Shown piece after piece: positions 41,533-62,742 of a DNA stretch of 64,000 bases. The DNA comes from an uncultured Phycisphaerales bacterium (lineage in GTDB: Bacteria; Planctomycetota; Phycisphaerae; Sedimentisphaerales; Anaerobacaceae), in assembly GCA_963718665.1 (NCBI GenBank), contig OY970359.1, positions 928,001 to 992,000 of the forward strand, written 5' to 3'. The notes beneath the pieces are model-generated. The model was not told the DNA's origin. It saw only the letters and a list, made by a program, of their open reading frames with translations, and ran no database searches. Position 1 is the stretch's first letter; each line of letters begins with the position of its first letter. The translations under genes and the position numbers were made by a program.

Positions 41533-42219
41533 TTACAACTTCTTAAGTCTGTCGATCTCGGCCTCAATCTCTTTCAGAACTTCCTTATTCGTAATTTCAT
41601 CATCAATGCTAAAAATAACAAATACTTTCCCCCCGTATTTTCGCTCAAACTCTCTAAAGCTTGCTTTCATTCTCTCCGAAGGTGAATAATTACCGAAATT
41701 TGCTTTGGCGGTTACGGGTTTTATTTGTATGCCAAATGCTTTCTTCCCGACGTAACCCAGATAATCAATATCTCCAGCATGGTCAAGCTCCGGTTCCGAC
41801 TCAACGAATTTGACATCTGAAAGCTTTTTCTCCAAAATTTCGGTTACAACAGATTTTTCTCTATAAAATCCGTCGTAGGTCCTTTTGATGGTTAGGTTGT
41901 AAATATAATCAATGCAATCCTGCAAAGTTAATTGCCTGAACGCTTCCTGCCACTCAGGAATAACAATCTCTGTGATTTTGACATATAATCTTTCACCAAG
42001 CTCCTCAAGTACTTTTTTTGTAATTTTTACAGGATTCTTACCGTCTGTATGCGCTTTTTCGAAATACCACTTTTCCCATTCCTCTATGGTTTTCGGTTGG
42101 CACTCCCTGATTAAAGCCATAACAGTCCCGACTTTGTTGGGCCTGGATAACTGATAGGCCTGACAAGCATAATTTAGCACTTTTTCTTTTTTGCCGAAAT
42201 TTTGCGAATAAGTTTTCAC
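41533..42219 (-). CDS. MjaI-family type II restriction endonuclease
   Basis: RP..VG.V..LI.E...EWE.WY; TYDG; DIDY.....FGIQIKP. Confidence 0.8.
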   Translation of the reverse strand: MKTYSQNFGKKEKVLNYACQAYQLSRPNKVGTVMALIRECQPKTIEEWEKWYFEKAHTDGKNPVKITKKVLEELGERLYVKITEIVIPEWQEAFRQLTLQDCIDYIYNLTIKRTYDGFYREKSVVTEILEKKLSDVKFVESEPELDHAGDIDYLGYVGKKAFGIQIKPVTAKANFGNYSPSERMKASFREFERKYGGKVFVIFSIDDEITNKEVLKEIEAEIDRLKKL

Positions 42220-42224
42220 GCCTG

Positions 42225-43517
42225 TTACACTCCTATTCTTGCCAAATCCATAAACTTCCGTTTGTATCTAAAGTCCATATCAGTATCGATTGAAACCAGT
42301 CCTTGTTTAATCAGGTGAGCATTCAAGAAGGTCTTGTTCTGAAGATACAAGTAGCAAAGAAGGTGATTTTGGTCGTCATGCTTGATGGTATCAAATTTCA
42401 TAAAGACATTCTGTCCATTGGTCTTGTCTCTCAAGAATTCAATCGCCTCCCTATGCTTCTCCGGTTTCTCCTTCACACCCAGCAATCGAATCTTTAGACC
42501 ATCACCGACGACTAACTCTTCAGGTGAAAGCACCTCTCTGACGCGGCAGTATTTTTCTCTGTTATGGCTGCCATTATTGATTTTTGAGCCGAATTGGAGC
42601 TTTCGAGGGTCAACCTTTTTATCGAATTTTACCGGGTCTTTAAAAATATAAGGCAGTTTCTTTATTTCCTCTTTCCAGTCAACCTCGTCTTCCCTGTTCA
42701 TTGCAAGTTCGAAACCAACTTTATCATCGAAGAATCCTTTGTCCTTTAGGCCAAGTTTTTCTTTTATGATTGGAATATAATCGGCGTTTATCTCATATCC
42801 TATTGAATTTCTTCCGAGATTCTTCGCCGCCAGCATAGTTGTTCCACTGCCTAAAAATGGGTCAAGAACCGTATCGCCGACAAATGTGAACATCCTGACA
42901 AGACGACGAGGAATTTCTTCTGGAAACATAGCCAAATGCCCGCTCTGCTTTTCGCCAGGAATATTCCAGTGGCCGGCAAAATATTGGTTCCATTCCTCAG
43001 TTGTCATTTTGGATTTTTCTTTTATAGCATCACTGACAGTTGGTGAAATACCCTGCTTTTTGAAAATCAATATGAACTCATAATCAATTTTTAATATGCC
43101 GTTGCGGGGATAGGGAAAAGAACCCATTATTGTTGCGCCGCCTGTTGTGTTGCAGGTGGTAACTTTTTGCCAGATGACCGCTCCCATATAGTCAAAACCG
43201 ACCGTCTCGCAGAATTTGATTATCTCTGTACGTATGGGAATAACTTTGTATCTGCCGTAATAAACCGAACGGGCAAACTGGTCGCCGATGTTTATACAAA
43301 GTCGGCATCCCTTGTGCAAAACTCTGTTGCACTCGTTCCAAACAAGGTTGAGATTGTTGATGTATTCTTCGTAGCTATGGTCAAACCCAATCTGATTGCC
43401 GTTTCCATAGTCCTTTAACTGCCAATAAGGAGGAGATGTAACGACAAGATGTACTGATTCATCGGTCAACTCTGTCATTGACCGGGAGTCCCCAACTATT
43501 ATCCGGTGCTGGGTCAT
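42225..43517 (-). CDS. beta-class N4C/N6A DNA methyltransferase with C-terminal SNase-like domain
   Basis: VTSPPY precedes DPFLGSGTT; C-terminal IRLLGV...LLCYLYL...NAHLIKQGL. Confidence 0.9.
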   Translation of the reverse strand: MTQHRIIVGDSRSMTELTDESVHLVVTSPPYWQLKDYGNGNQIGFDHSYEEYINNLNLVWNECNRVLHKGCRLCINIGDQFARSVYYGRYKVIPIRTEIIKFCETVGFDYMGAVIWQKVTTCNTTGGATIMGSFPYPRNGILKIDYEFILIFKKQGISPTVSDAIKEKSKMTTEEWNQYFAGHWNIPGEKQSGHLAMFPEEIPRRLVRMFTFVGDTVLDPFLGSGTTMLAAKNLGRNSIGYEINADYIPIIKEKLGLKDKGFFDDKVGFELAMNREDEVDWKEEIKKLPYIFKDPVKFDKKVDPRKLQFGSKINNGSHNREKYCRVREVLSPEELVVGDGLKIRLLGVKEKPEKHREAIEFLRDKTNGQNVFMKFDTIKHDDQNHLLCYLYLQNKTFLNAHLIKQGLVSIDTDMDFRYKRKFMDLARIGV

Positions 43518-47252: not shown

Positions 47253-48821
47253 TCAATAAATCCTATGTCCCGTTCTCGCAGTATGTTCGAAATTTATAAA
47301 GAAATATCGCAGGGCGTCAACTGGGTGGTCGTAAACACCGTCTTTTAGGGGTAATTCATCGCCAGCCGGCGTATCGGGATAGTGATAGCAGGTCAGTGCC
47401 TCGATAAGGCGGGCACATTGGGGCGAGACAATAAATCGGCTTTTGCCCGCGCCATCGCGTATCGCCCGGCGGATTGACTCGATGCCCTCGGCGATTCCGC
47501 TTCTGCGATAACGCACGTTGACACCAAGCGAACGCAATTCGCGAACCGCGCTTGTGCCGGTAACGTCGTTGGCTCCCGCACCCGCCGGGTCGCAAAACGT
47601 CGCGATAACTCGCGATTCACCAGTTGGGATTCTGGTCTTCAACTCAGCCGCATGAACATCGATTGTCGCACGAGTTCGCACGTATTCATCAATCACCCGC
47701 ACCACACCTTCGCTATCGACCTGAATCCACAGGCACACAAACGGGTTGGCGAAACCAAAATCCAACGAGCGATACAAAGGCAAATTCGCATCATATCCGA
47801 CGGGCCTGACATGAATTGCGGCATCGAACTGGTCAAAAACAACATTTTCAAGATTAGGTTTCAGGCACAGCATCTCTGCCTCCCAACCCGCCCTGCTGCT
47901 GCGTCGCATCTGCGTAATACAATCGTTTATTTTCAAATAGCCGGCTGCCTGTTTTGCCCTGCCCGCACAATCACCCCACAACGGGCACTGCGAACAGTTT
48001 CTGTCGGTGCATTTTTCGATTGTCTCCCAGACGCACCACTTGAAAAGGGGCGTGTTGGTTTTGGCAGCCGACGAGACGATTTTCTGCATAAGGCCGTATG
48101 GCTTGTGCATTGTGCTGATTGTTTCCATACCGGCGATAATACTGTCCGTGCTTTGCGTGGTAAATTTCGCGGCGTTGAAAACATCGTTATCAAAAAGCTC
48201 GATCTCATCACAGCGTAGTTTTTGAATGTGCTGGCCCCGAACACTCGCCTGCGATTGCGTGAGGACATCGACCGTCGAACCATTGCTGAATCGGCAGCCG
48301 GTTTTGCGAATTGGCTCTAAAAGAAACTTATCGAAGCCGAGTCGCAGAAAATCGGTGAGATATCGATACATCCTCCCCGCCTGTTCTTCTGAACCCGCCA
48401 ATATCCGCACCTGGCAATTGGGCTTGAAGACGCAATCCAAAAGCGTCGCAACGGCCGCAAGGTCGGTCTTGCCTCCGCCCCTATTCGCCCAGACGACGCA
48501 ATCCGCGTTTGTGGGCTTTTGGAATTTTACCGCAGAGCACGCAGAGTTCGCAGAGGTTATTTTTAATTGATTCTCGGCGTTCTCAGCGGCGAGTGTTTTT
48601 TTCTCTTTTATAAAGTCGCAGTTAAAGCTGTGCCAGAGATAATCCAAGGGGCTATTATGCTCTGTGCAAATCTGCATGTCCGGCACGTCAATCCCCAAAA
48701 AGACCTTGATGTAGTTTTTCAGGTCATTTTTTGTCGCGGGCCTTGCTCGTCTTAGCGATTCATACAAGCGGGAAACACTTTGGGTCTGCGCATTTACCGG
48801 CAGAATGATACCGTTAGTCAT
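47253..48821 (-). CDS. phage terminase large-subunit-like protein
   Basis: Walker A ANRGGGKT; Walker B LRCDE; RNase H-like nuclease motifs SLDFG, CDPAG and DHPVDALRY. Confidence 0.85.
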   Translation of the reverse strand: MTNGIILPVNAQTQSVSRLYESLRRARPATKNDLKNYIKVFLGIDVPDMQICTEHNSPLDYLWHSFNCDFIKEKKTLAAENAENQLKITSANSACSAVKFQKPTNADCVVWANRGGGKTDLAAVATLLDCVFKPNCQVRILAGSEEQAGRMYRYLTDFLRLGFDKFLLEPIRKTGCRFSNGSTVDVLTQSQASVRGQHIQKLRCDEIELFDNDVFNAAKFTTQSTDSIIAGMETISTMHKPYGLMQKIVSSAAKTNTPLFKWCVWETIEKCTDRNCSQCPLWGDCAGRAKQAAGYLKINDCITQMRRSSRAGWEAEMLCLKPNLENVVFDQFDAAIHVRPVGYDANLPLYRSLDFGFANPFVCLWIQVDSEGVVRVIDEYVRTRATIDVHAAELKTRIPTGESRVIATFCDPAGAGANDVTGTSAVRELRSLGVNVRYRRSGIAEGIESIRRAIRDGAGKSRFIVSPQCARLIEALTCYHYPDTPAGDELPLKDGVYDHPVDALRYFFINFEHTARTGHRIY

Positions 48822-48888
48822 AATATGCCTCCTAACTCCAGATGGGAAAATTAAAAATTTGTGATTTGAATCTTAACTAAACTTAGCT

Positions 48889-49320
48889 TTATTCCACATC
48901 GATTTTTTGGATGCGGGCAAGGTGTCGTCCGCCGTCGAAGGGGGTATTAAGCCAAAGCTCAACTATTTCCAGCGCTTCCTCAATCGCAATCATCCGCTCG
49001 CCCATCGACAGCATATTGGCGTCATTATGTGCCCTGCTCAGCCGGGCGGAACGCAAATCCCAGCACAAGGCACATCGCACGCCTTTGACCCTGTTGGCGA
49101 CCATCGCTTCGCCGTTGCCAGAACCGCCTAAAATAATTCCGCGGTCGTATTTGCCCGCGGCGACCGCCTTGGCCACAGGCCTCATAATATCGGGGTAATC
49201 GCACGGCTTTTCGGAATCCGTGCCGAAATCGTCAACCGTATGCCCCTTCTCAATCAGGAACTTTTTTATGATTTCCTTGTATTTGAAACCCGCCTGGTCG
49301 GCACCAATCGCTATCTTCAT
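48889..49320 (-). CDS. rpiB: ribose-5-phosphate isomerase B
   Basis: IAIGADQAG, DYPD, GSGNG, SRAHND.N and FDGGRH motifs. Confidence 0.93.
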   Translation of the reverse strand: MKIAIGADQAGFKYKEIIKKFLIEKGHTVDDFGTDSEKPCDYPDIMRPVAKAVAAGKYDRGIILGGSGNGEAMVANRVKGVRCALCWDLRSARLSRAHNDANMLSMGERMIAIEEALEIVELWLNTPFDGGRHLARIQKIDVE

Positions 49321-49444
49321 CAATCGTATCCTTTCCGGTTAATTTATCAGACGGACGATTATAAGGCAAATCGCCCGCTGGCTCAAAAAATTTCTGCCGC
49401 ACCTATTTTGGCCTGTCGAAAACAAAACGTATATTTTAACTGGA

Positions 49445-49637
49445 AGAATGCCCCGCTCTGTTTTGGGAGGGTTCGGCTTGCCTCGCCGAAGGGTGCGGAA
49501 GCCGACAAAAGCTGCAGCCCAAAATGACTGCTGCGGCTTTCCCAGAACAGGGCGGGGTTGATGCTAAAAAGCTTTTCGTAAAGAGAGACGATGCCCTTTT
49601 GGAAGAAAGTGAGGGCGAGATCTTTGGGCCTGCGTCT
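49445..49637 (+). ncRNA. candidate structured ncRNA (three-way junction plus terminator)
   Basis: 18-bp closing stem 49451-49468/49540-49557 with two U-G pairs, two inner helices, then a GAGAGACG/CGTCTCTC stem followed by a T-run. Confidence 0.5.
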
Positions 49638-49885
49638 CTCTTTTTTTCGTTTCGCATCGTCCCCTCTACGCGATTCCCAATTCAGATTTTCTGTAAATCG
49701 TTCGCGATATTTTTTGTTTTTGCCGAACCTCGTCATATACTTTCTATGGAGGAAGCTGATGATGGGACCCGCGGGTCCGCGAGGCATCAGGCCTCAAAGA
49801 AGCTAAAAATAGAAGGCGATAATGTATAAGGGAGACCGCCCGGCAAATTAAATGAGCCATAAAGGAGCGTGTGTCTCCCTTCGGT

Positions 49886-50332
49886 TTATGCGCAATCAGG
49901 CGTCACCTGTTCCTGTTGTTTATCTGTGCTCGCCAAAGCCGATAATAATCTGCTGGCAAGTTCAGGCGGCAAATCTGGTAGCTTCTCAACTTCGGGTTGT
50001 TCGTCGGGGCTGGGTTCCGCTTTTTGCCGGAGATAATTTATAACGTCTAAGCAGGCCTTGCGAGACGTTTCCTGATTCTCTGAGCTGGTCAACTCCACTA
50101 ATTTGACGGCGGCCACATTAGCGAACCTCGCGATTATCAGCTCGCCTCGTCGATGAGCGGATTTGACTCGCCGGTCAAACTCACCCGCAAAATTCTCGTC
50201 GGCCAGCCATTTATCGTAAATGCGTTTGTTAATCCTGTGCTTTTCGAAAATCTGCTGTTCATCAAGCTCGCCCGCGAACAAATCCTCAATCACCGCGAGC
50301 TGCTTTCTTGTAATCCTCTTAGTGTTTGACAT
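49886..50332 (-). CDS. HTH protein resembling a terminase small subunit
   Basis: RKQL..I..L...HTH...IYDKWL.D.NF..E followed by AA.KL.EL....R.AC..I; overlaps the end of parB. Confidence 0.55.
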   Translation of the reverse strand: MSNTKRITRKQLAVIEDLFAGELDEQQIFEKHRINKRIYDKWLADENFAGEFDRRVKSAHRRGELIIARFANVAAVKLVELTSSENQETSRKACLDVINYLRQKAEPSPDEQPEVEKLPDLPPELASRLLSALASTDKQQEQVTPDCA

Positions 50333-50972
50333 TTTCAGCCCCTAAAAATTTAGATGCTATTTCCGTAATCGCCGCGGCTCGACGCTGCGCCTTTGTCATC
50401 TTATTGCTCGATATTCGATTTTCGATGCTCGATAACGCTTCCTCGATAACCCCCTGCTGTTGCTTTGTCACGAAAAACACAAGCGGTATGGCAAACTGCT
50501 CCGCCTGGGCTTCGAGTGGCGCGATAGTCAGTTTCAGGTTTGTCAGCCGTTCAATCTGCTTGGCCGTCTGAGGGAGTAATTTGGCTAATTGGGCTGTCCC
50601 CATCCGCTCAGTAAGCTTTTTCAACAATTCGATTTTCTTCGCCGGCGTATCCGAGCCGGCCAACCGATTCAGCGTCGTCAGCAAAATGGCCGTCTGCTCA
50701 TCGTCCACGTCCCAGACAACGCAATCCGCCTCTTTACGCCCCAGTCGCTCCAGTGCTTTTACGCGGTGATGGCCGTTGATAATCTGAAATTTATCCGCCG
50801 TGGCGGAATGGCCTTTTTCGTCCGGATGAGGCCTGACAACAATCGGCTCATACAGCCCCGTCCGCTCGATATTGCGAACCAGCTTGCGAAACGTCGCATC
50901 ACTCATCACATTAGGATTATCGGGATGTGCAGTAAGCTTTGACAACGCTATCGATTTAATCGGTTCAGACAT
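50319..50972 (-). CDS. ParB/Srx N-terminal domain protein
   Basis: HPDNPN.M...KL.RNI..G..EPIVVR...IINGHHR. Confidence 0.9.
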   Translation of the reverse strand: MSEPIKSIALSKLTAHPDNPNVMSDATFRKLVRNIERTGLYEPIVVRPHPDEKGHSATADKFQIINGHHRVKALERLGRKEADCVVWDVDDEQTAILLTTLNRLAGSDTPAKKIELLKKLTERMGTAQLAKLLPQTAKQIERLTNLKLTIAPLEAQAEQFAIPLVFFVTKQQQGVIEEALSSIENRISSNKMTKAQRRAAAITEIASKFLGAENVKH

Positions 50973-51070
50973 TTTTTATTTCTCCTAATCAATGCATATT
51001 AATGAGTTAGCGAACGAGTAAAAAACAATGGATGCACGGGGAAGGGGCTGTCGCACTGCTCGTGAAGTCG

Positions 51071-53407
51071 CTACCACAGATTACTCTGTGAGACACCGTA
51101 TAATTTACAAATTTTATTATCTATCGAGCTTATCGTATTGGCACGATCGGCTCCTCTGGGGCTTTCATTTAACAACATTACAGTAAGATTTACCACCTCA
51201 TCAAATAACCGCTTATCCTGTTCATTTTGCGGGACAGGCATAGGAAATTCACGGAGGACGCTAACTCGGTAACAATACCAACCAGAACCTAATGTCGGCA
51301 TTCGTCGTTGAGCCCACATCCGGAATACTTTGCTGTTAAGAACAGCAAGCAAAAAATAAACGTTTAAAGCCTTTTCATCCGGGCATATAAGAATGACGCT
51401 ATTGTTACAGAAGAGCTGTCGACATCGGTCCATGGCAAAGCTGCCGCCGGAACTAACTACACTCCCAACAATTTTTGGGCTTTTAATGATGCCAGAGACG
51501 TCTTCGCTTCTAAATGCATACCACGGTTGTTTCCTTTTCTGTTTTCTATAGATAAGATAAGGTTCGCAACGTTTTAAGTATTTATATGTAAGAGGAAATT
51601 CCGTCCGTAACATATCTTCAGTGTACAGCTTTCCGGTCTCATCATAAGGAAATATGCACAGCGTTTCAGGTTCCGGTAAGGTATATTCTTTGATATGGCG
51701 TCCACGTAATATCGGCCTCAAAATCGAATGTTCAAATACAAATCCATCACCCAAGAAACGACTTTCGGCTAATACGGTTTTAGAAGTCAAGCATTCGGCG
51801 TTTTTTAACAGAAACACATTATCCGCCTCTGTAGCTGTTCCAAAGCAGATGCGGACAGGCAATTTGCCGAGAGGTAAACCCGTTGACTCGATTTTATACA
51901 ATAGGTTCACCTCGCTTTCAGAATCCAAAATCCAATTTTCTGAAGCACATGCTGTGGCAGGCAGATTACGAATTTGTAATGATGTGTCGTCGCCGAATTT
52001 ATCAATTCTGCTTAGTTTCCTGCGCAGACTTCCTTTCGCTTTAATAAATACATATTTTGTGGTATTTTTCTCAGCAGTTTTTTGAAGCATAATTACCGCA
52101 ATCTGAACCGTAGCGTTTTGATATAGCCTGCTATCTTCAAATTCCACAATTTCACCAACAGTACACTCCTCGGCAATCAATTGACGAAGCACACGACCGC
52201 TTTTGGATCGCAAAAATGTATTAGAAATGCTCATACTTAAGTAGCCCTGATTTGCTAATTGCTCGATCGATTTTTCAATGAAAAGCATGTATAGATCAAA
52301 CTGATCGGTTTTTGCTACTCTAAATCTGCGCTTATAATTTTCGACCTTTTCGCGGTCTGACTTATAAAGTTCCTGGACTCGGACAAAAGGCGGCCCACCA
52401 ATAATCACTTGGAATGCTTCGTTTTTCAAAGATTGCCCCGCAAGGAAATCCTCGCATCTAATATTTTCCTCGAGAGTCGGTATCCTCAGATTTTGAATAT
52501 CATCCCTGCTTACGCCGTTGCTAATATAAAAATCCCATATTGTCAGCAAAAGTAATCTGCGTGTTTGCTGAATTGCCCATTCATCAATGTCTGTGCCATA
52601 AATCATAGACTCCAAAAGATTGAGTGTTTTCTGCGGAGAGAGACGTTGCGGTCTTTTATTGTCATTATAATTGCTTTTGAGCCATTTCAGTAAGAAACGA
52701 ACTGTTGCGATTAAAAATGCTCCACAGCCACAGGATGGATCGAGAATTCGCAGATGTTCAACCTGCTCAAGAGCCAATTTGCGAAATAATTTCTCAAAAG
52801 TATGAAACACAATGTAATCTACCAGGGGTGCAGGTGTGTAATATACACCTCTGGCATGACGGTCTGAGTGTTTTTTGTGAATTTTTTTATCTGCAATCGG
52901 ACTGCTTAAGCATAACTGATAAAAATCACTCATAATAGTGACCGGCATTCGACATCCATATATGACTTCGGCCGTTTCCGATATTTTAGCAAGAGATGAC
53001 AAATCAACATTTTTTTGTGGCGCTACCCCTGAATCACGTAAATGCTCCGGATTAAAAACCGCTTTGAGCAGTTTGCATGATACGCGATTGTAAACTGCCT
53101 CACAAAGATTGAACGCTGTTGGTTTATTAGCAATTTTTAGAATTTCCTCAAGAGTTGGAATCGCCATATAATCTAACTGTTTAACAAAGCCAATAAGCAT
53201 AATTGTATGGATACATTCGTCAACCGACCGTTGGGCATTTTCCCTATCTGCCTCCTTATTAAAATCACCGGCCCATACCCACAGCAAATACTCTCGCCAT
53301 TTTTGAAGATAATCGAGATGACGTGCAACAATTCTATACGGAGGAGAAATCTGCTGTTCAAGTAAAGGTGGAAGAATAGCTCCAGATTCTAATAAATAGT
53401 CAGACAC
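51071..53407 (-). CDS. Eco57I/TaqI-like N6-adenine methyltransferase with TRD; atypical motif IV GPPF
   Basis: RGVYYTP; motif I LDPSCGCGAF; IIGGPPFV in place of NPPY; DLY..FIE; TaqI_C-like AVLNSK. Confidence 0.85.
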   Translation of the reverse strand: MSDYLLESGAILPPLLEQQISPPYRIVARHLDYLQKWREYLLWVWAGDFNKEADRENAQRSVDECIHTIMLIGFVKQLDYMAIPTLEEILKIANKPTAFNLCEAVYNRVSCKLLKAVFNPEHLRDSGVAPQKNVDLSSLAKISETAEVIYGCRMPVTIMSDFYQLCLSSPIADKKIHKKHSDRHARGVYYTPAPLVDYIVFHTFEKLFRKLALEQVEHLRILDPSCGCGAFLIATVRFLLKWLKSNYNDNKRPQRLSPQKTLNLLESMIYGTDIDEWAIQQTRRLLLLTIWDFYISNGVSRDDIQNLRIPTLEENIRCEDFLAGQSLKNEAFQVIIGGPPFVRVQELYKSDREKVENYKRRFRVAKTDQFDLYMLFIEKSIEQLANQGYLSMSISNTFLRSKSGRVLRQLIAEECTVGEIVEFEDSRLYQNATVQIAVIMLQKTAEKNTTKYVFIKAKGSLRRKLSRIDKFGDDTSLQIRNLPATACASENWILDSESEVNLLYKIESTGLPLGKLPVRICFGTATEADNVFLLKNAECLTSKTVLAESRFLGDGFVFEHSILRPILRGRHIKEYTLPEPETLCIFPYDETGKLYTEDMLRTEFPLTYKYLKRCEPYLIYRKQKRKQPWYAFRSEDVSGIIKSPKIVGSVVSSGGSFAMDRCRQLFCNNSVILICPDEKALNVYFLLAVLNSKVFRMWAQRRMPTLGSGWYCYRVSVLREFPMPVPQNEQDKRLFDEVVNLTVMLLNESPRGADRANTISSIDNKICKLYGVSQSNLW

Positions 53408-53501
53408 AATTTAATCTTTTTAAATAAGCATTAAAGTTGATGGCGTGAATTAATCCCTGTGTTTCCGGCCAATTAAAAATATCGCAGGCAATTGTTAATC
53501 A

Positions 53502-54671
53502 TCAGAGCACGCAGTTACAACGACCGATAGAGTCCTTCATATCCAAAGCATCGAAAACGTCGGTCTCTTCCAAACACAGACCGATTTGCAGTTTGGGCCG
53601 AAGTTTTTTTATTTTGTCAATGAGGTATCGATACACTTCGATTCTTAGTTTTACAGGGAAGCGCATTCTACCATCTTTCGATTTGCCCTTTTCGAGCATT
53701 TTTGAAATAGCGTTATTCTTCCCTAATTTTCTCTCGGTAAGCTGCAACGCTCCGAAGTAGCTGCAAATTTGCCCCAGCGTTATGCGTTCAAGCGGGACTG
53801 ATACTAAAAATTTCTCCAAAAAGCGTGTGTATATATTTTGCCACCCTTCTACGGGGATAATGGGCATTATAACGGCGCGTAAGGGATAGCCCGCATTTGC
53901 ACACTTCCGCATCGCAGCAATTCTTTCATCGGGCAAAGGCACGTTCGACTCGAACAAGCTGGAAATCTCACCGGGATTTAAGCTCCACGAAAGAATGGTG
54001 TGGCCGTTGTGGTCAAGGTCAAGCAAATTGTCCACATTGGCGCTTTTTGTCAATAGAGTCAGTTTGGCGTTTTTCTGGTGAGCAAAAAAAGGAATAATTA
54101 AGCGTGAATAGCCGGTAAGCGGGTCAATCGCCAAACCGTCCTGGAGTTTCCCCAAGTAGAAGGCCGCGGGTACGGTCAGTTTTGAAGCAATGCCTGCGAT
54201 TCGGTCAAGGATTTCAGCGATATTTACAAATATCTTTACTGTCGGTGAGAATTTTACGCCGGGCGTTCCTGCCAGATAACAATACCGGCAATCATAAGGG
54301 CAAAAGCTGTATGGCGAAAAATGCCAGTAATTGGGGCAGCCATTACCATCCTCGTCGCTGAACCTTAGTGCGCTTTTATGCACGCCGAATACAAGGGTTT
54401 TTTTGCCTTTATAGTGCGTTTCCAGGATATCCGGCCCGCCAATATCGAGGCGATTATGAGAGGTGCCGAATCTTTCGAGCACCCGGGCCTGAGGATATAC
54501 CTTACAAATTGCCTGAACAAAATCACGCTGTTGGACGGTCTGACAGCTGCCTTTAGTCAATACAATTGCATCAGGGGTAAAATAAGAAGCCCGCTTTGGT
54601 TGATAATCCCAACACGAATTCTTTGCTGAAAAAAGGTCAATCATAATTGAATTTTCGCGCTCTAAACTCAT
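53502..54671 (-). CDS. spore photoproduct lyase-like radical SAM protein
   Basis: CPYDCRYC cluster motif; LLTKS, SWSLNP, LCLE and terminal CNC. Confidence 0.85.
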   Translation of the reverse strand: MSLERENSIMIDLFSAKNSCWDYQPKRASYFTPDAIVLTKGSCQTVQQRDFVQAICKVYPQARVLERFGTSHNRLDIGGPDILETHYKGKKTLVFGVHKSALRFSDEDGNGCPNYWHFSPYSFCPYDCRYCYLAGTPGVKFSPTVKIFVNIAEILDRIAGIASKLTVPAAFYLGKLQDGLAIDPLTGYSRLIIPFFAHQKNAKLTLLTKSANVDNLLDLDHNGHTILSWSLNPGEISSLFESNVPLPDERIAAMRKCANAGYPLRAVIMPIIPVEGWQNIYTRFLEKFLVSVPLERITLGQICSYFGALQLTERKLGKNNAISKMLEKGKSKDGRMRFPVKLRIEVYRYLIDKIKKLRPKLQIGLCLEETDVFDALDMKDSIGRCNCVL

Positions 54672-54692
54672 ATTGTCAAGACAAAGACATAC

Positions 54693-55521
54693 TCAGCCTG
54701 CATCCCAAATCCTCAATTCAACATTAGTATTTCGCCACATATAATACACGGGCCTGTCGGTTAGTTTATTGAGGACAAATCTTGTGCGTTCGATGCCGGG
54801 CTGCATAAGGCGTCTTTGGCCGTAACTTTGAAGGAATCGCGTCATCTCGCCATCAATAAATTGTGCCGCCCCGCATTTTATTTCACCGCCGAGATCGCAA
54901 AGACCGCGGAGATTATTTTTAACTATTTTTTTCTCTGCGTTCTCGGCGTGCTCTGCGGTAAAAATTGAATCGAGCTTCTGCTGGACAAGTTCCGCGTCAA
55001 TCAAATCCTGCTCATCTACGCCGACCGCACTAAACGCCTCAATCAATCGAACACACGATGGGGATATTGGCGCATCATATCGCGTCAATCCCGCCTTTTC
55101 AAAAAACGGGTTCGCCCTTCCCATCACCGCCAGCGCCTCAACGAAGGGGACATCCATAATCGGCATCGTCTCTTTGACTAAGCGAACCGCAAGCCCCAGC
55201 GAGCGAAACCTCGGCTCGATAATCACCCTGCTGATTGTGCGGATATTTTTGTTGATGAGCTTGAGACGCGTGCCCTTATCCAGCCCCGCGAAAATCCCGC
55301 CTGTCGCGATATTTCGCATCTGCGCCAGCCGTCGGCATCGAATAAACAATCACCCCCACGGTTTCGAGCTTCGTCGCCGTACGGAATTTACCCTTCAACG
55401 CAAAAATCGCCGCGTATGGCCCCATATTCGGCTCGCGGTAATGATAATGCGAAAGCGATTCGTAATCCGCCCTCGTCCCACGCACAATTTCGAGATTTCT
55501 CGCCACTGTGCACATTTCCAT
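54693..55521 (-). pseudogene. GNAT acetyltransferase (COG2401/Mom-like), split by a frameshift near 55320
   Basis: The N-terminal part (L..YHY...VGVIVY.MP; ORF 55276-55521) joins the C-terminal part (QMRN...ISRVIIEPRFRSLGLA..LV...EALAVM..NPFFEKAG; ORF 54693-55349). Confidence 0.8.
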
Positions 55522-55537
55522 TTTTGCTTTTTCCCTT

Positions 55538-56185
55538 TTACTTTTTACTTTTATATGTGACTTCCGCTTCTCCTGAGAAGTTTTTCACCACCAGCACATC
55601 CGGCTGCAAATCCGCCAGTATGTCCTCGTGAGCCGACGCGAGGAAAAACGTAACGCCGTTGTGTTTCGCGAACCTACGAACGTTATATGCGATTACGCCC
55701 GCGGTGATGCGGTCCAGGTTGCTGCAAAACTCGTCTGCGAATACGAACTTCCTGCCCGACGCCAGCGCGCAGGCCAGGCGAAAACGATATTTCTGCCCTT
55801 CGCTTAAATTCGCCGGCGCATTCAGCATACAAAACACGTCGCTCAGCCCCGCATAGCTCAGCATCGATAATCCGTCAATCGTCCCCGTTCCACCCACGCA
55901 GTCAATCGCTGATTTATCCGCAGGCAAAGCTATCTGCTCGATTACGATTTTATCATCATCCGCTACCGCCGCCTGCATTTCCCGCAGCAGCACGCTTTTG
56001 CCCGCCCCCGAAGGCCCGGTTATGTAAACAATGTCCCCATCGTTTACCTCGACTGTGCATGCGTGCGTCGTGCGCTGACCTTTGAGCCGGTCGATTCCCA
56101 CGCCGAACATCCGCATCACAGTCGTAACGCGCTCGCTTTTTTGCGGATTAACCTCGAATTGTTTCGCCACAGAAAATTTACGCAT
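55538..56185 (-). CDS. soluble ABC-type ATPase (COG2401-like)
   Basis: Walker A GPSGAGKS; signature LSEGQKYRFRLA; DEFCSNLDR; no permease gene nearby. Confidence 0.88.
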   Translation of the reverse strand: MRKFSVAKQFEVNPQKSERVTTVMRMFGVGIDRLKGQRTTHACTVEVNDGDIVYITGPSGAGKSVLLREMQAAVADDDKIVIEQIALPADKSAIDCVGGTGTIDGLSMLSYAGLSDVFCMLNAPANLSEGQKYRFRLACALASGRKFVFADEFCSNLDRITAGVIAYNVRRFAKHNGVTFFLASAHEDILADLQPDVLVVKNFSGEAEVTYKSKK

Positions 56186-56188
56186 CGC

Positions 56189-56635
56189 TCAATCCTCCTT
56201 TACCTCGTCCCCGCGCTTATTCGGCACACTTGTCAGCCGCTGAATTTGTCGCATCGTCTTTCTCACCTGGTAATACGTAATCTCGTGCCTGTCGGCTATC
56301 TCCTTCATAGGCAATCCATCGACAAAATAATCTCTCGCCATTTCAATCTGCTCATTGCTGAATTTGTCCCGGTTGTGCAGGCAGGTAATGTATTGCCCGT
56401 CAAGAAGCCGGCGAACCAGCTTGTGAATCCTTCTGGCAACGTTCACCTCATTGACGCCCGCCAGCCGCGCCATTTGGCTCAATGTCCCCGACCCGTTCAG
56501 ATACATTTGCATCAAAGCCCCATCCCTGCCCGTCAGCAGTCCCGCCCTGCATCGCAGAAGGTCAATTCTGTCCGTAGCTTCTGTCTCTTCTCTGCTGATG
56601 GGATTAACTTTTTGAAACGCCCTGCTCCTGGCCAT
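56189..56635 (-). CDS. double-HTH / sigma-region-4-like DNA-binding protein
   Basis: LSQMARLAGV...VARRI and MKEIADRHEITYYQVRK helix-turn-helix segments. Confidence 0.7.
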   Translation of the reverse strand: MARSRAFQKVNPISREETEATDRIDLLRCRAGLLTGRDGALMQMYLNGSGTLSQMARLAGVNEVNVARRIHKLVRRLLDGQYITCLHNRDKFSNEQIEMARDYFVDGLPMKEIADRHEITYYQVRKTMRQIQRLTSVPNKRGDEVKED

Positions 56636-57136
56636 ATCACTTCTCCTTTCTCCTCACAATCCGAAATCAAAATTTATCCGCCTTCGGCGTAATTTACTTC
56701 ATCATTGGATATTTGATATTGGACATTGGACATTCAATTCCATCTTCTCACTTCTAACTTCTGCCTTACTTAACTTTGCATTTCGCATTTTGATTTTTGC
56801 TATGCTTATCCGCACTCCGTCCCCGTCAGGCGCCTTTCATCTTCTAACTTCTAACTTCTGCCTATTAGTTGTTATTTATCAACCTAACAACAACCATAAT
56901 TTTATATCTATCGTCTTAAATGTCAAATTGTTTTTAGTAAAAAAACGAAATATTTTTATTGTTCACTATTTATATAACAAGTGAGTTGCCAAAAATCCCC
57001 GTTTTTAGCCCAATAACGAGGATTTTCGGGGATTTACTTCAAGAAGGGGGCCAAGCAATTTTTTTTGTTCTTTGGCTTAATTTTCTTGTGAGTTTTAAAG
57101 AATGAACCCAGCGAGGGATTCTTTTTCAACCCAACC

Positions 57137-61870: not shown

Positions 61871-62458
61871 TCATTTCTGCGAATGCGGAAAGTTTAATCG
61901 TGCGAATTGGCCATGATATTTCCTCGCAGCCGCATCGAATGCCTTTGCAGCGTCTTCTTCATTATCGAAATAGCCCAGCCATTTTTTCCCCTCTTTATGT
62001 TTGATTTGTGCTGCCCATTTGTTCATCTTCTTCGCGAAATGCACTCCGACAAATCGAGACGTAGTGTTTCTTCTCTTTGGCCTGTTACAGTTGTTCTGTG
62101 AATGTGTCGCCGGCCGCAAATTGTCCCTGCGATTATCCAGCCCGTTACAATTTATGTGGTCGATAAACAGGCCCGCTGGAGGATTGCAAATAAACCTGTG
62201 CATCGAGGTTAGTTTCGAATGACTGCCCGTCTCTTTGAAAAAACGCACGGCGTAAATACTGTCGAAGTCCTCTTTGATAATCCAGTCCAGCTCGTTTATC
62301 CGGTAAAAGTCCTTTTGGTCAACAATAGCGTATTTGTCTTCGCCCACATGAATCCTGCGAAACTCATACCCGTATTTGCGCCTTCGATACAACCTCGCCG
62401 GCCACGCGCAGATTTTATCTACCCAGTTCGGAACTTTAATTGTCATGCGAATCTTCAT
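61871..62458 (-). CDS. HNH endonuclease with C-terminal AP2 domain (copy B)
   Basis: IDHINCNGLDNRRDNLR...N; SRFVGV...LGYF...AAKAFD.AARKYHGQFARLNFP; RBS AGGAG before the ATG at 62458. Confidence 0.9.
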   Translation of the reverse strand: MKIRMTIKVPNWVDKICAWPARLYRRRKYGYEFRRIHVGEDKYAIVDQKDFYRINELDWIIKEDFDSIYAVRFFKETGSHSKLTSMHRFICNPPAGLFIDHINCNGLDNRRDNLRPATHSQNNCNRPKRRNTTSRFVGVHFAKKMNKWAAQIKHKEGKKWLGYFDNEEDAAKAFDAAARKYHGQFARLNFPHSQK

Positions 62459-62742
62459 AATTCTTCTCCTCTCGTAGCTTTGCGAAGACCCCGGACTACG
62501 ATCCGGGGCCCAGAACCGCAGTCGGGGATCCACAAAAACTAAACACTAAAAACTGAAAACTCAAAACTATAGAGGAAGTCGAAGAATCGACTTCCTCTAT
62601 CCTATGGCGCAATCTTCGCGCTTTTGACGAAAACTAAGGGATTTCCTGATGGGGCCAAAAACGATAAGTCCTTATGAAATAAGGAGTAAAAAAATTTTAA
62701 GATTTTTGAATCTAAGGGTTTTCGACCTGCGCGAAAATGGAT

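Follow-up and report, generated by a model that had tools for sequence, protein, structure and literature searches.

An ancient, split phage-derived gene set with a predicted DNA base acyltransferase in Phycisphaerae

The packaging operon

We analysed a 64,000-nucleotide stretch (the window) of contig OY970359.1 from the genome of an uncultured Phycisphaerales bacterium (G000; GenBank assembly GCA_963718665.1), with positions counted along the stretch. Its minus strand carries an operon of phage-type packaging genes, encoding a helix-turn-helix (HTH) protein, an ATP-binding cassette (ABC) ATPase, a GNAT acyltransferase, a short ParB-like protein and the small and large terminase subunits (TerS and TerL). 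HTH-ABC-GNAT-ParB-TerS-TerL is a conserved operon, and together with an unlinked head operon it forms an ancient, selected, split gene set of phage origin, not a decaying prophage. An initial annotation of this DNA had listed nine co-oriented minus-strand genes, and all nine were recovered at these positions:

56189..56635, minus strand: HTH protein, 148 amino acids (aa), sigma70-region-4/Q-like (weak Pfam and PHROG matches under the cut-off); likely element regulator
55538..56185, minus strand: soluble ABC ATPase, 215 aa (PF00005, phrog_293)
54693..55521, minus strand: GNAT acyltransferase of the ABC-coupled family (phrog_886); one gene, split in the assembly
53502..54671, minus strand: radical SAM protein, spore-photoproduct-lyase-like (PF20903); variable cargo
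51071..53407, minus strand: DNA methyltransferase, N6-adenine-type (PF07669, PF02384); recent cargo
50319..50972, minus strand: short ParB-like protein, 217 aa, with PF02195 (ParB_N) as the sole domain matched and a GHHR motif
49886..50332, minus strand: TerS-like protein (phrog_2538, E 3e-7, residues 6-114), likely with an N-terminal HTH
48889..49323, minus strand: rpiB, a host gene (PF02502), with its own promoter-like site at 49386-49358
47253..48821, minus strand: TerL, 522 aa (PF17289, phrog_2)

The ATPase and nuclease motifs of TerL had been described as intact, and the alignment agrees. The sequences NRGGGKT (G116-T119) and LRCDE (D205/E206), which we take to be Walker A and Walker B, and the acidic residues D354, D411, D498 and D502, presumably those of the nuclease, were invariant in 10 aligned relatives. 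TerL also has a conserved four-cysteine cluster (C271/C276/C279/C285). The Walker A, LSxGQ, DEF and D-loop motifs of the ABC ATPase were invariant in an alignment of 29 sequences. A Pfam scan detected no DNA-binding domain in the ParB-like protein. The HTH profile PF13022 matched 3 of 27 TerS orthologues (best E 5e-5), and the N-terminal helices of TerS are conserved. The HTH gene is the first gene of the operon class-wide, with a ratio of nonsynonymous to synonymous substitution rates (dN/dS) of 0.185. The position of rpiB inside the cluster was borne out, and in synteny comparisons many Sedimentisphaerales likewise have TerS on one side of it and TerL on the other.

The radical SAM and methylase genes, which the initial annotation had counted as members, are cargo outside the conserved system, because they occur in only 2 and 1 of 80 TerL loci, respectively, and because the GC content at third codon positions (GC3) of the methylase gene is alien (0.36, below the 5th percentile of the genome).

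Upstream of the HTH gene we found a promoter and two palindromes, the latter in a motif search of orthologous leaders:

56960..56979, minus strand: upstream TGTT-N12-AACA palindrome, likely operator
56899..56926, minus strand: sigma-70-type promoter TTGACA-16-TAAAAT, matching 11 of 12 consensus positions
56870..56889, minus strand: downstream TGTT-N12-AACA palindrome, likely operator

The TTGACA element was conserved in 16 genus-level upstream regions. The palindrome occurred in 14 of 26 orthologous upstream regions, which come from kin (mean of 0.37 and maximum of 3 in shuffles), and was not enriched genome-wide (61 sites, similar to other spacings). Since the two palindromes flank the promoter of the HTH gene, repression of the packaging operon via these boxes is suggested. 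None of 22 portal upstream regions contained the palindrome, and no operator common to both operons was found; the word GGGACG occurs, weakly, in both operon leaders.

The unlinked head operon

The cluster had been described as capsid-less. This holds for the window, where none of the open reading frames (ORFs) of positions 40,000-64,000 (15 scanned by library) was identified as a portal or capsid gene. It does not hold for the genome: a search for unlinked genes, as the initial annotation had proposed, recovered a head operon ~685 kb from the packaging operon (G000:C1:1660095-1669818). An SPP1-type portal (G000:C1:1660095-1661666; PF05133 over the cut-off) is followed downstream by a scaffold and an SU10-type major capsid protein (285 bits), and every portal or capsid match found genome-wide lies outside the window. 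The head operon has seven further genes, among them those for a beta-helix protein and a tail-tip-like protein; it also encodes a small membrane coiled-coil protein (weak Rz-like match) and a lipoprotein-like protein. Every core head gene is single copy in G000. Tail-related matches were weak only (tail collar, E 0.0025; fibre J, E 0.025; neck, E 5e-5), and the Atlas features of the tail-like proteins scored 0.91-0.94 to phage tail clusters.

Other portal and capsid families were not found in G000. PF04860 and PF05065, which we take to be the HK97-type portal and capsid pair of the Rhodobacter capsulatus gene transfer agent (RcGTA), gave no match over the cut-off, and their controls matched in Caulobacter. 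Profiles built from neighbours of viral TerLs recovered no portal or capsid, and PF06074 gave no match either in G000 or in its positive control. We regard the packaging and head loci as halves of one element because ABC, GNAT, TerL, portal and capsid are contiguous in two other families (G068 and G135).

The tail-tip-like protein (G000:C1:1667733-1668800) has 355 aa in G000 and close relatives and ~600 aa elsewhere, a shared shortening. Spore-photoproduct-lyase-like genes occur at both loci: besides the one at window positions 53502-54671, another (31-37% identical) lies, in several relatives, near the end of the head operon on the opposite strand.

Distribution and descent

We surveyed 61 relatives (42 of high quality) and 201 genomes of the class; kin are included in these samples, and the counts are not independent. 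TerL was present in 60 of the 61 relatives, with identity dropping with kinship, and as a single copy in all 42 high-quality ones. The closest TerL loci were those of Sedimentisphaerales and Phycisphaerae. Class-wide, TerL matched in 141 genomes, and 125 strong matches remained after we dropped 16 with E above 1e-30. Capsid genes were found in 43 of the 61 relatives and in 117 of the 201 class genomes; TerL and capsid occurred together in 113, TerL only in 12, capsid only in 4 and neither in 72. The GNAT profile matched 150 class genomes. In 24 of the 80 loci, TerL is preceded by the full set of five upstream genes in the same order, and many of the remaining loci are short or interrupted by insertions. 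The HTH-ABC-GNAT-ParB-TerS-TerL order recurs in distant families (e.g., f15, f21 and f27), and the genes flanking the element are fixed within the genus.

A family outside the class (f68) has a second split element. One part has a capsid ~51% identical, a scaffold and the genes downstream, and the other, lying apart, is a GNAT-TerL with a distantly related TerL (E about 1e-23 to 1e-33). It is a candidate sister or parallel domestication.

To follow descent, we compared trees of 31 genomes, chosen for having both TerL and capsid, with a partial-RpoB reference tree. TerL shared 17 of 28 splits with the RpoB tree and capsid 13 of 28 (shuffles shared at most 3), with zero conflict among splits with support of at least 0.95. 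The trees are thus largely congruent, with some deep discord in approximately unbiased (AU) tests, detailed below. Tree length was 8.4 for capsid and 6.9 for RpoB. Pairwise dN/dS within the genus was about 0.09 to 0.28 for 17 element genes. TerL was at 0.087, the other operon genes at 0.12 to 0.21, capsid at 0.093 and the tail-like genes at up to 0.28; the host comparison genes rpiB and dinG were at 0.11 each. The GC3 of the core element genes is host-like. As annotated initially, the window has no tyrosine integrase; a PF00589 search found none within 60 kb of either locus, the nearest tyrosine recombinases lying ~108 kb and ~60 kb from the two loci. No replication gene was recognised in the ORF lists and library scans, which included no search by family.

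Kinship to phages is distant. The closest isolated-phage capsid was 31% identical, and the closest GenBank phage GNAT less than 30% identical. In IMG/VR, four contigs had a TerL ATPase half 39-43% identical; the remaining matches had ~25-35% TerL identity, mostly over the nuclease domain. Two IMG/VR contigs (L111 and L112) encode the TerL ATPase half (39% identical to the window TerL) and nuclease-like domains as separate ORFs, near a ParB-like gene.

These comparisons indicate that the gene set is largely vertically inherited, fixed as a single copy in the majority of the Phycisphaerae searched and under purifying selection. An ordinary prophage remnant, or a prophage acquired again and again, is a highly improbable account that the data already contradict. 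It would fit a gene order that matches that of a real phage (nickie, below), repeated losses within the genus, the AU discord and the arrangement in G076 and G179 described below. It does not fit a single-copy gene in every high-quality relative with fixed flanking genes, host-like GC3, purifying selection, the lack of an integrase, host genes and repeats inside the operon, or a nearest isolated-phage capsid of such low identity. The genes are not patchy, decaying and nested among phage sequences, and the long residence of a split gene transfer agent (GTA)-like or DNA-modifying system, as first proposed for this locus, is supported.

Sequence integrity and in-frame repeats

The GNAT gene reads as two ORFs in the assembly (55276-55521 and 54693-55349). 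Two bases absent behind position 55321 cause the frameshift; 10 close relatives carry two more bases there, and GNAT is uninterrupted in relatives (243-270 aa). We checked contigs from two sequencing runs of the same study, possibly from the source sample (X1 and X2). Over the GNAT site, they had a 2-base insertion at full depth and were otherwise identical. Because the contigs of both runs carry the missing bases at full depth, the gene is intact in the organism and the split is an assembly error. One X2 contig also has one extra base in the C-terminal part of ParB (window position 50449), which X1 lacks.

A palindromic repeat of ~80 bp occurs at 31 sites in G000, 5 of them within long ORFs and some directly after tRNA genes. 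Host repeats had been reported within three operon genes, which held for TerL and GNAT:

48519..48605, no strand assigned: palindromic host repeat in TerL, in frame, 28 codons; this genome only
54876..54968, no strand assigned: palindromic host repeat in GNAT, in frame; similar inserts in G009 and G013

One X1 contig spans the TerL insert gap-free, and this TerL loop took different inserts in three relatives (G001, G009 and G021). The third case is less solid: the ParB insert (near 50790-50810) has 6 codons, is also found in 4 of 17 relatives and looks like another palindrome, which is weaker (8 copies, against 0 to 1 in three simulated genomes).

Elsewhere in the window, an HNH-AP2 endonuclease is encoded at 61871-62533 and has at least four paralogues in the genome. 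At 41533-43517, a methylase-like and then a nuclease-like ORF (named from sequence appearance only) adjoin argB-argD-argF, and the pair has no match in the syntenic loci of relatives.

The ABC-GNAT-ParB cassette

The GNAT had been described as Mom-like. Its coupling to an ABC ATPase near terminase and ParB stood, and the likeness to Mom proved loose. An alignment-based model of an intact GNAT orthologue had a GNAT fold with a predicted local distance difference test score (pLDDT) of 92, and a single-sequence fold of GNAT gave a pLDDT of 34. The top PDB fold matches of the model were to NAT10, a nucleic acid acetyltransferase, and were weak (E 6e-5; TM score, 0.40). Among viral fold matches, a protein annotated as Mom ranked second (TM score, 0.47). 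The phage Mu Mom structure (8BV8) was neither among the PDB profile matches nor among the Foldseek matches listed. The only PHROG match of GNAT was phrog_886, and among its neighbours in the Atlas are fused ABC-GNAT proteins of viruses and archaea. PMC7824862, citing Iyer et al. 2013, distinguishes such a GNAT-ABC pair from Mom and predicts that it acylates a DNA base, and a short phage ParB without a DNA-binding domain is described as activating a phage DNA-modifying enzyme (PMC13229309). We infer that the ABC-GNAT pair, with ParB as its activator, would be an ATP-driven base acyltransferase.

ABC-GNAT also occurs alone. The GNAT profile matched 9 of 9 genomes in family f11, 11 of 11 in f23 and 1 of 1 in f25. 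ABC and GNAT form one fused gene of ~480-550 aa in the nine genomes of these families that we examined (G099, G147, G160, G086, G153, G213, G230, G105 and G133). Phage-gene profiles had no match within 20 kb of the fused gene in these nine, and no TerL was found in any of the five tested, by a profile that detects distant TerLs elsewhere. In a FastTree phylogeny of ABC plus GNAT with one phage as the outgroup, the fused genes form one clade, and solo copies in family f9 nest among element-linked f9 copies. The backbone of this tree does not place the fused clade, which may therefore be a separate acquisition. The stand-alone fused ABC-GNAT is a candidate cellular nucleic acid acyltransferase.

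In two genomes (G076 and G179), the neighbours of ABC-GNAT are a terminase of a different kind and another portal-like gene, which suggests either partner replacement or a true prophage.

A proposed GTA-like particle and its rivals

We think it somewhat probable that the packaging operon and the unlinked head operon build a host-owned GTA-like particle; the gene set is also predicted to acylate DNA bases. Expression would start from the sigma-70 promoter once some condition lifts its repression, with the HTH protein switching on the late genes. Chromosomal DNA would be cleaved by TerS and TerL and driven via the portal into the SU10-type head, while the ABC ATPase would power GNAT, activated by the short ParB, in placing an acyl group onto a base. 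Such a mark would protect the cargo against restriction in recipient cells. A short noncontractile tail tip would deliver the DNA, and the spanin-like pair may aid release. Membership among GTAs cannot be claimed from genes alone, and the selected function may be gene transfer or DNA modification.

Several observations weigh against a GTA-like particle. Within the genus, capsid is missing in 11 of 23 genomes and TerL is present in 22 of 23, and five head-less genomes (G002, G019, G020, G013 and G026) keep the packaging operon. Pairwise dN/dS is not raised in three of them (G002, G019 and G020). G067, a complete single-contig genome, keeps the whole packaging operon, with no portal or capsid found. 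Families f11, f23 and f25 are without TerL and capsid orthologues, so that ABC-GNAT persists without TerL. The G000 element has no gene that we could identify as encoding a tail tube, tape measure or endolysin, and tail-like genes are absent from G012, G017, G031 and G054 (six genes, from a 122-aa ORF through the tail-tip-like gene, in G012 and G017). The AU tests rejected the full RpoB topology (P = 0.006 and 0.0009) and, in a fast search, marginally rejected its strong splits (P = 0.043 and 0.025). Lastly, the window TerS seems to keep an HTH, unlike the GTA TerS proteins described in PMC11841831, which lack a DNA-binding domain.

Head loss bears on one rival in particular, namely, that a capsid-independent job is by now the main reason for keeping the operon, one in which ABC-GNAT, with or without ParB, modifies host DNA or RNA, and TerL and TerS serve as a nuclease-ATPase or are passengers. 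The loss itself is plain: in G002, G007, G019 and G020, a single contig carries the sequences on either side of the head operon, and the operon itself is gone. The wider distribution of GNAT than of TerL or capsid (150 versus 125 and 117 of the 201 class genomes), the solo fused genes, with no phage gene detected in the 20-kb stretches of the nine genomes examined, the nesting of solo f9 copies, the NAT10 fold match and the unrelaxed dN/dS of head-less genomes all favour such a job. However, TerL without capsid is rare class-wide (12 of 125), and the fused clade may have been acquired separately. Packaging genes are broken or lost in head-less G005, G007 and G016 and in none of 11 head-bearing relatives; such lesions affect 3 of 8 head-less genomes with long loci, which are small numbers. 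Pairwise dN/dS is little informative on relaxation, because recent head loss leaves pairwise values unchanged. We judge the capsid-independent job unlikely.

It is also rather improbable that the particle is real and host owned yet no gene transfer vehicle, serving instead in storage, as a decoy, in interference with phage packaging or in effector delivery, and filled with DNA or protein. Retention of the head core (portal, scaffold, capsid and a 218-aa gene) where tail-like genes are lost, a capsid about as conserved as RpoB by tree length and the failure to find an endolysin are in line with this. The terminase, though, is intact with its nuclease residues in 113 of 117 capsid-bearing genomes, tail-tip-like genes are selected in many lineages, and no PADLOC defence model fits TerL, TerS, GNAT or HTH.

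Returning to the GTA-like particle, a bolder version, which we offer as tentative and rather doubtful, is that of an independently domesticated, class-wide GTA that marks its packaged DNA by an ATP-driven acyltransferase, with whole families later keeping the enzyme alone as a new cellular nucleic acid modification. The element also provides the ABC-GNAT enzyme, for which base modification has so far been only predicted, in a host form that is fixed and single copy, and natural knockouts (head lost, tail lost or enzyme alone) that make the questions of gene transfer and modification testable.

Comparison with known systems

Our literature search, whose coverage excluded subscription journals and supplements, found no description of this Phycisphaerae system. 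Inducible hexagonal particles of ~30 nm have been described in cultured Poriferisphaera heterotrophicis and assigned to an extrachromosomal phage (PMC10945688). Phage Mu Mom shares the GNAT fold; it is described as a single enzyme that uses Gly-tRNA, and the text of that account contains neither "ABC" nor "ParB" (PMC13219725). Compared by description only, phage thymine dioxygenases also have ParB activators (PMC13229309), whereas the partner here is ABC-GNAT.

The closest likeness in the cassette is to the predicted ABC-coupled GNAT base acylation system of phages, which likewise has an ABC ATPase, GNAT and ParB adjoining the terminase. Unlike the phage version, ours is chromosomal, single copy and host inherited, and it occurs as a stand-alone fusion in three families. 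Phage nickie (NC_042091) has the order ParB-MTase-ABC-x-GNAT-x-DNA-binding-TerL-portal-x-capsid, and its ABC and GNAT match the profiles of the window system (E 4e-67 and 9e-28). This gene neighbourhood therefore shows the kind of ancestor from which the element could derive.

GTAs such as RcGTA are alike in having chromosomal phage-derived packaging and head genes at distant split loci, no integrase, and vertical descent under purifying selection. GTA genes are often split over loci hundreds of kilobases apart, and GTAs are known from few lineages and are not findable by homology, because they have arisen from different phages (PMC11841831). The element differs from described GTAs in its added ABC-GNAT-ParB cassette and in having no clear counterpart of the tail tube and lysin. 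It also differs from RcGTA in its ancestral phage, with an SPP1-type portal and an SU10-type capsid in a genome where PF04860 and PF05065 were not found. If the element is indeed a GTA, the class-wide Planctomycetota system would add a domestication event that arose independently and uses another type of head.

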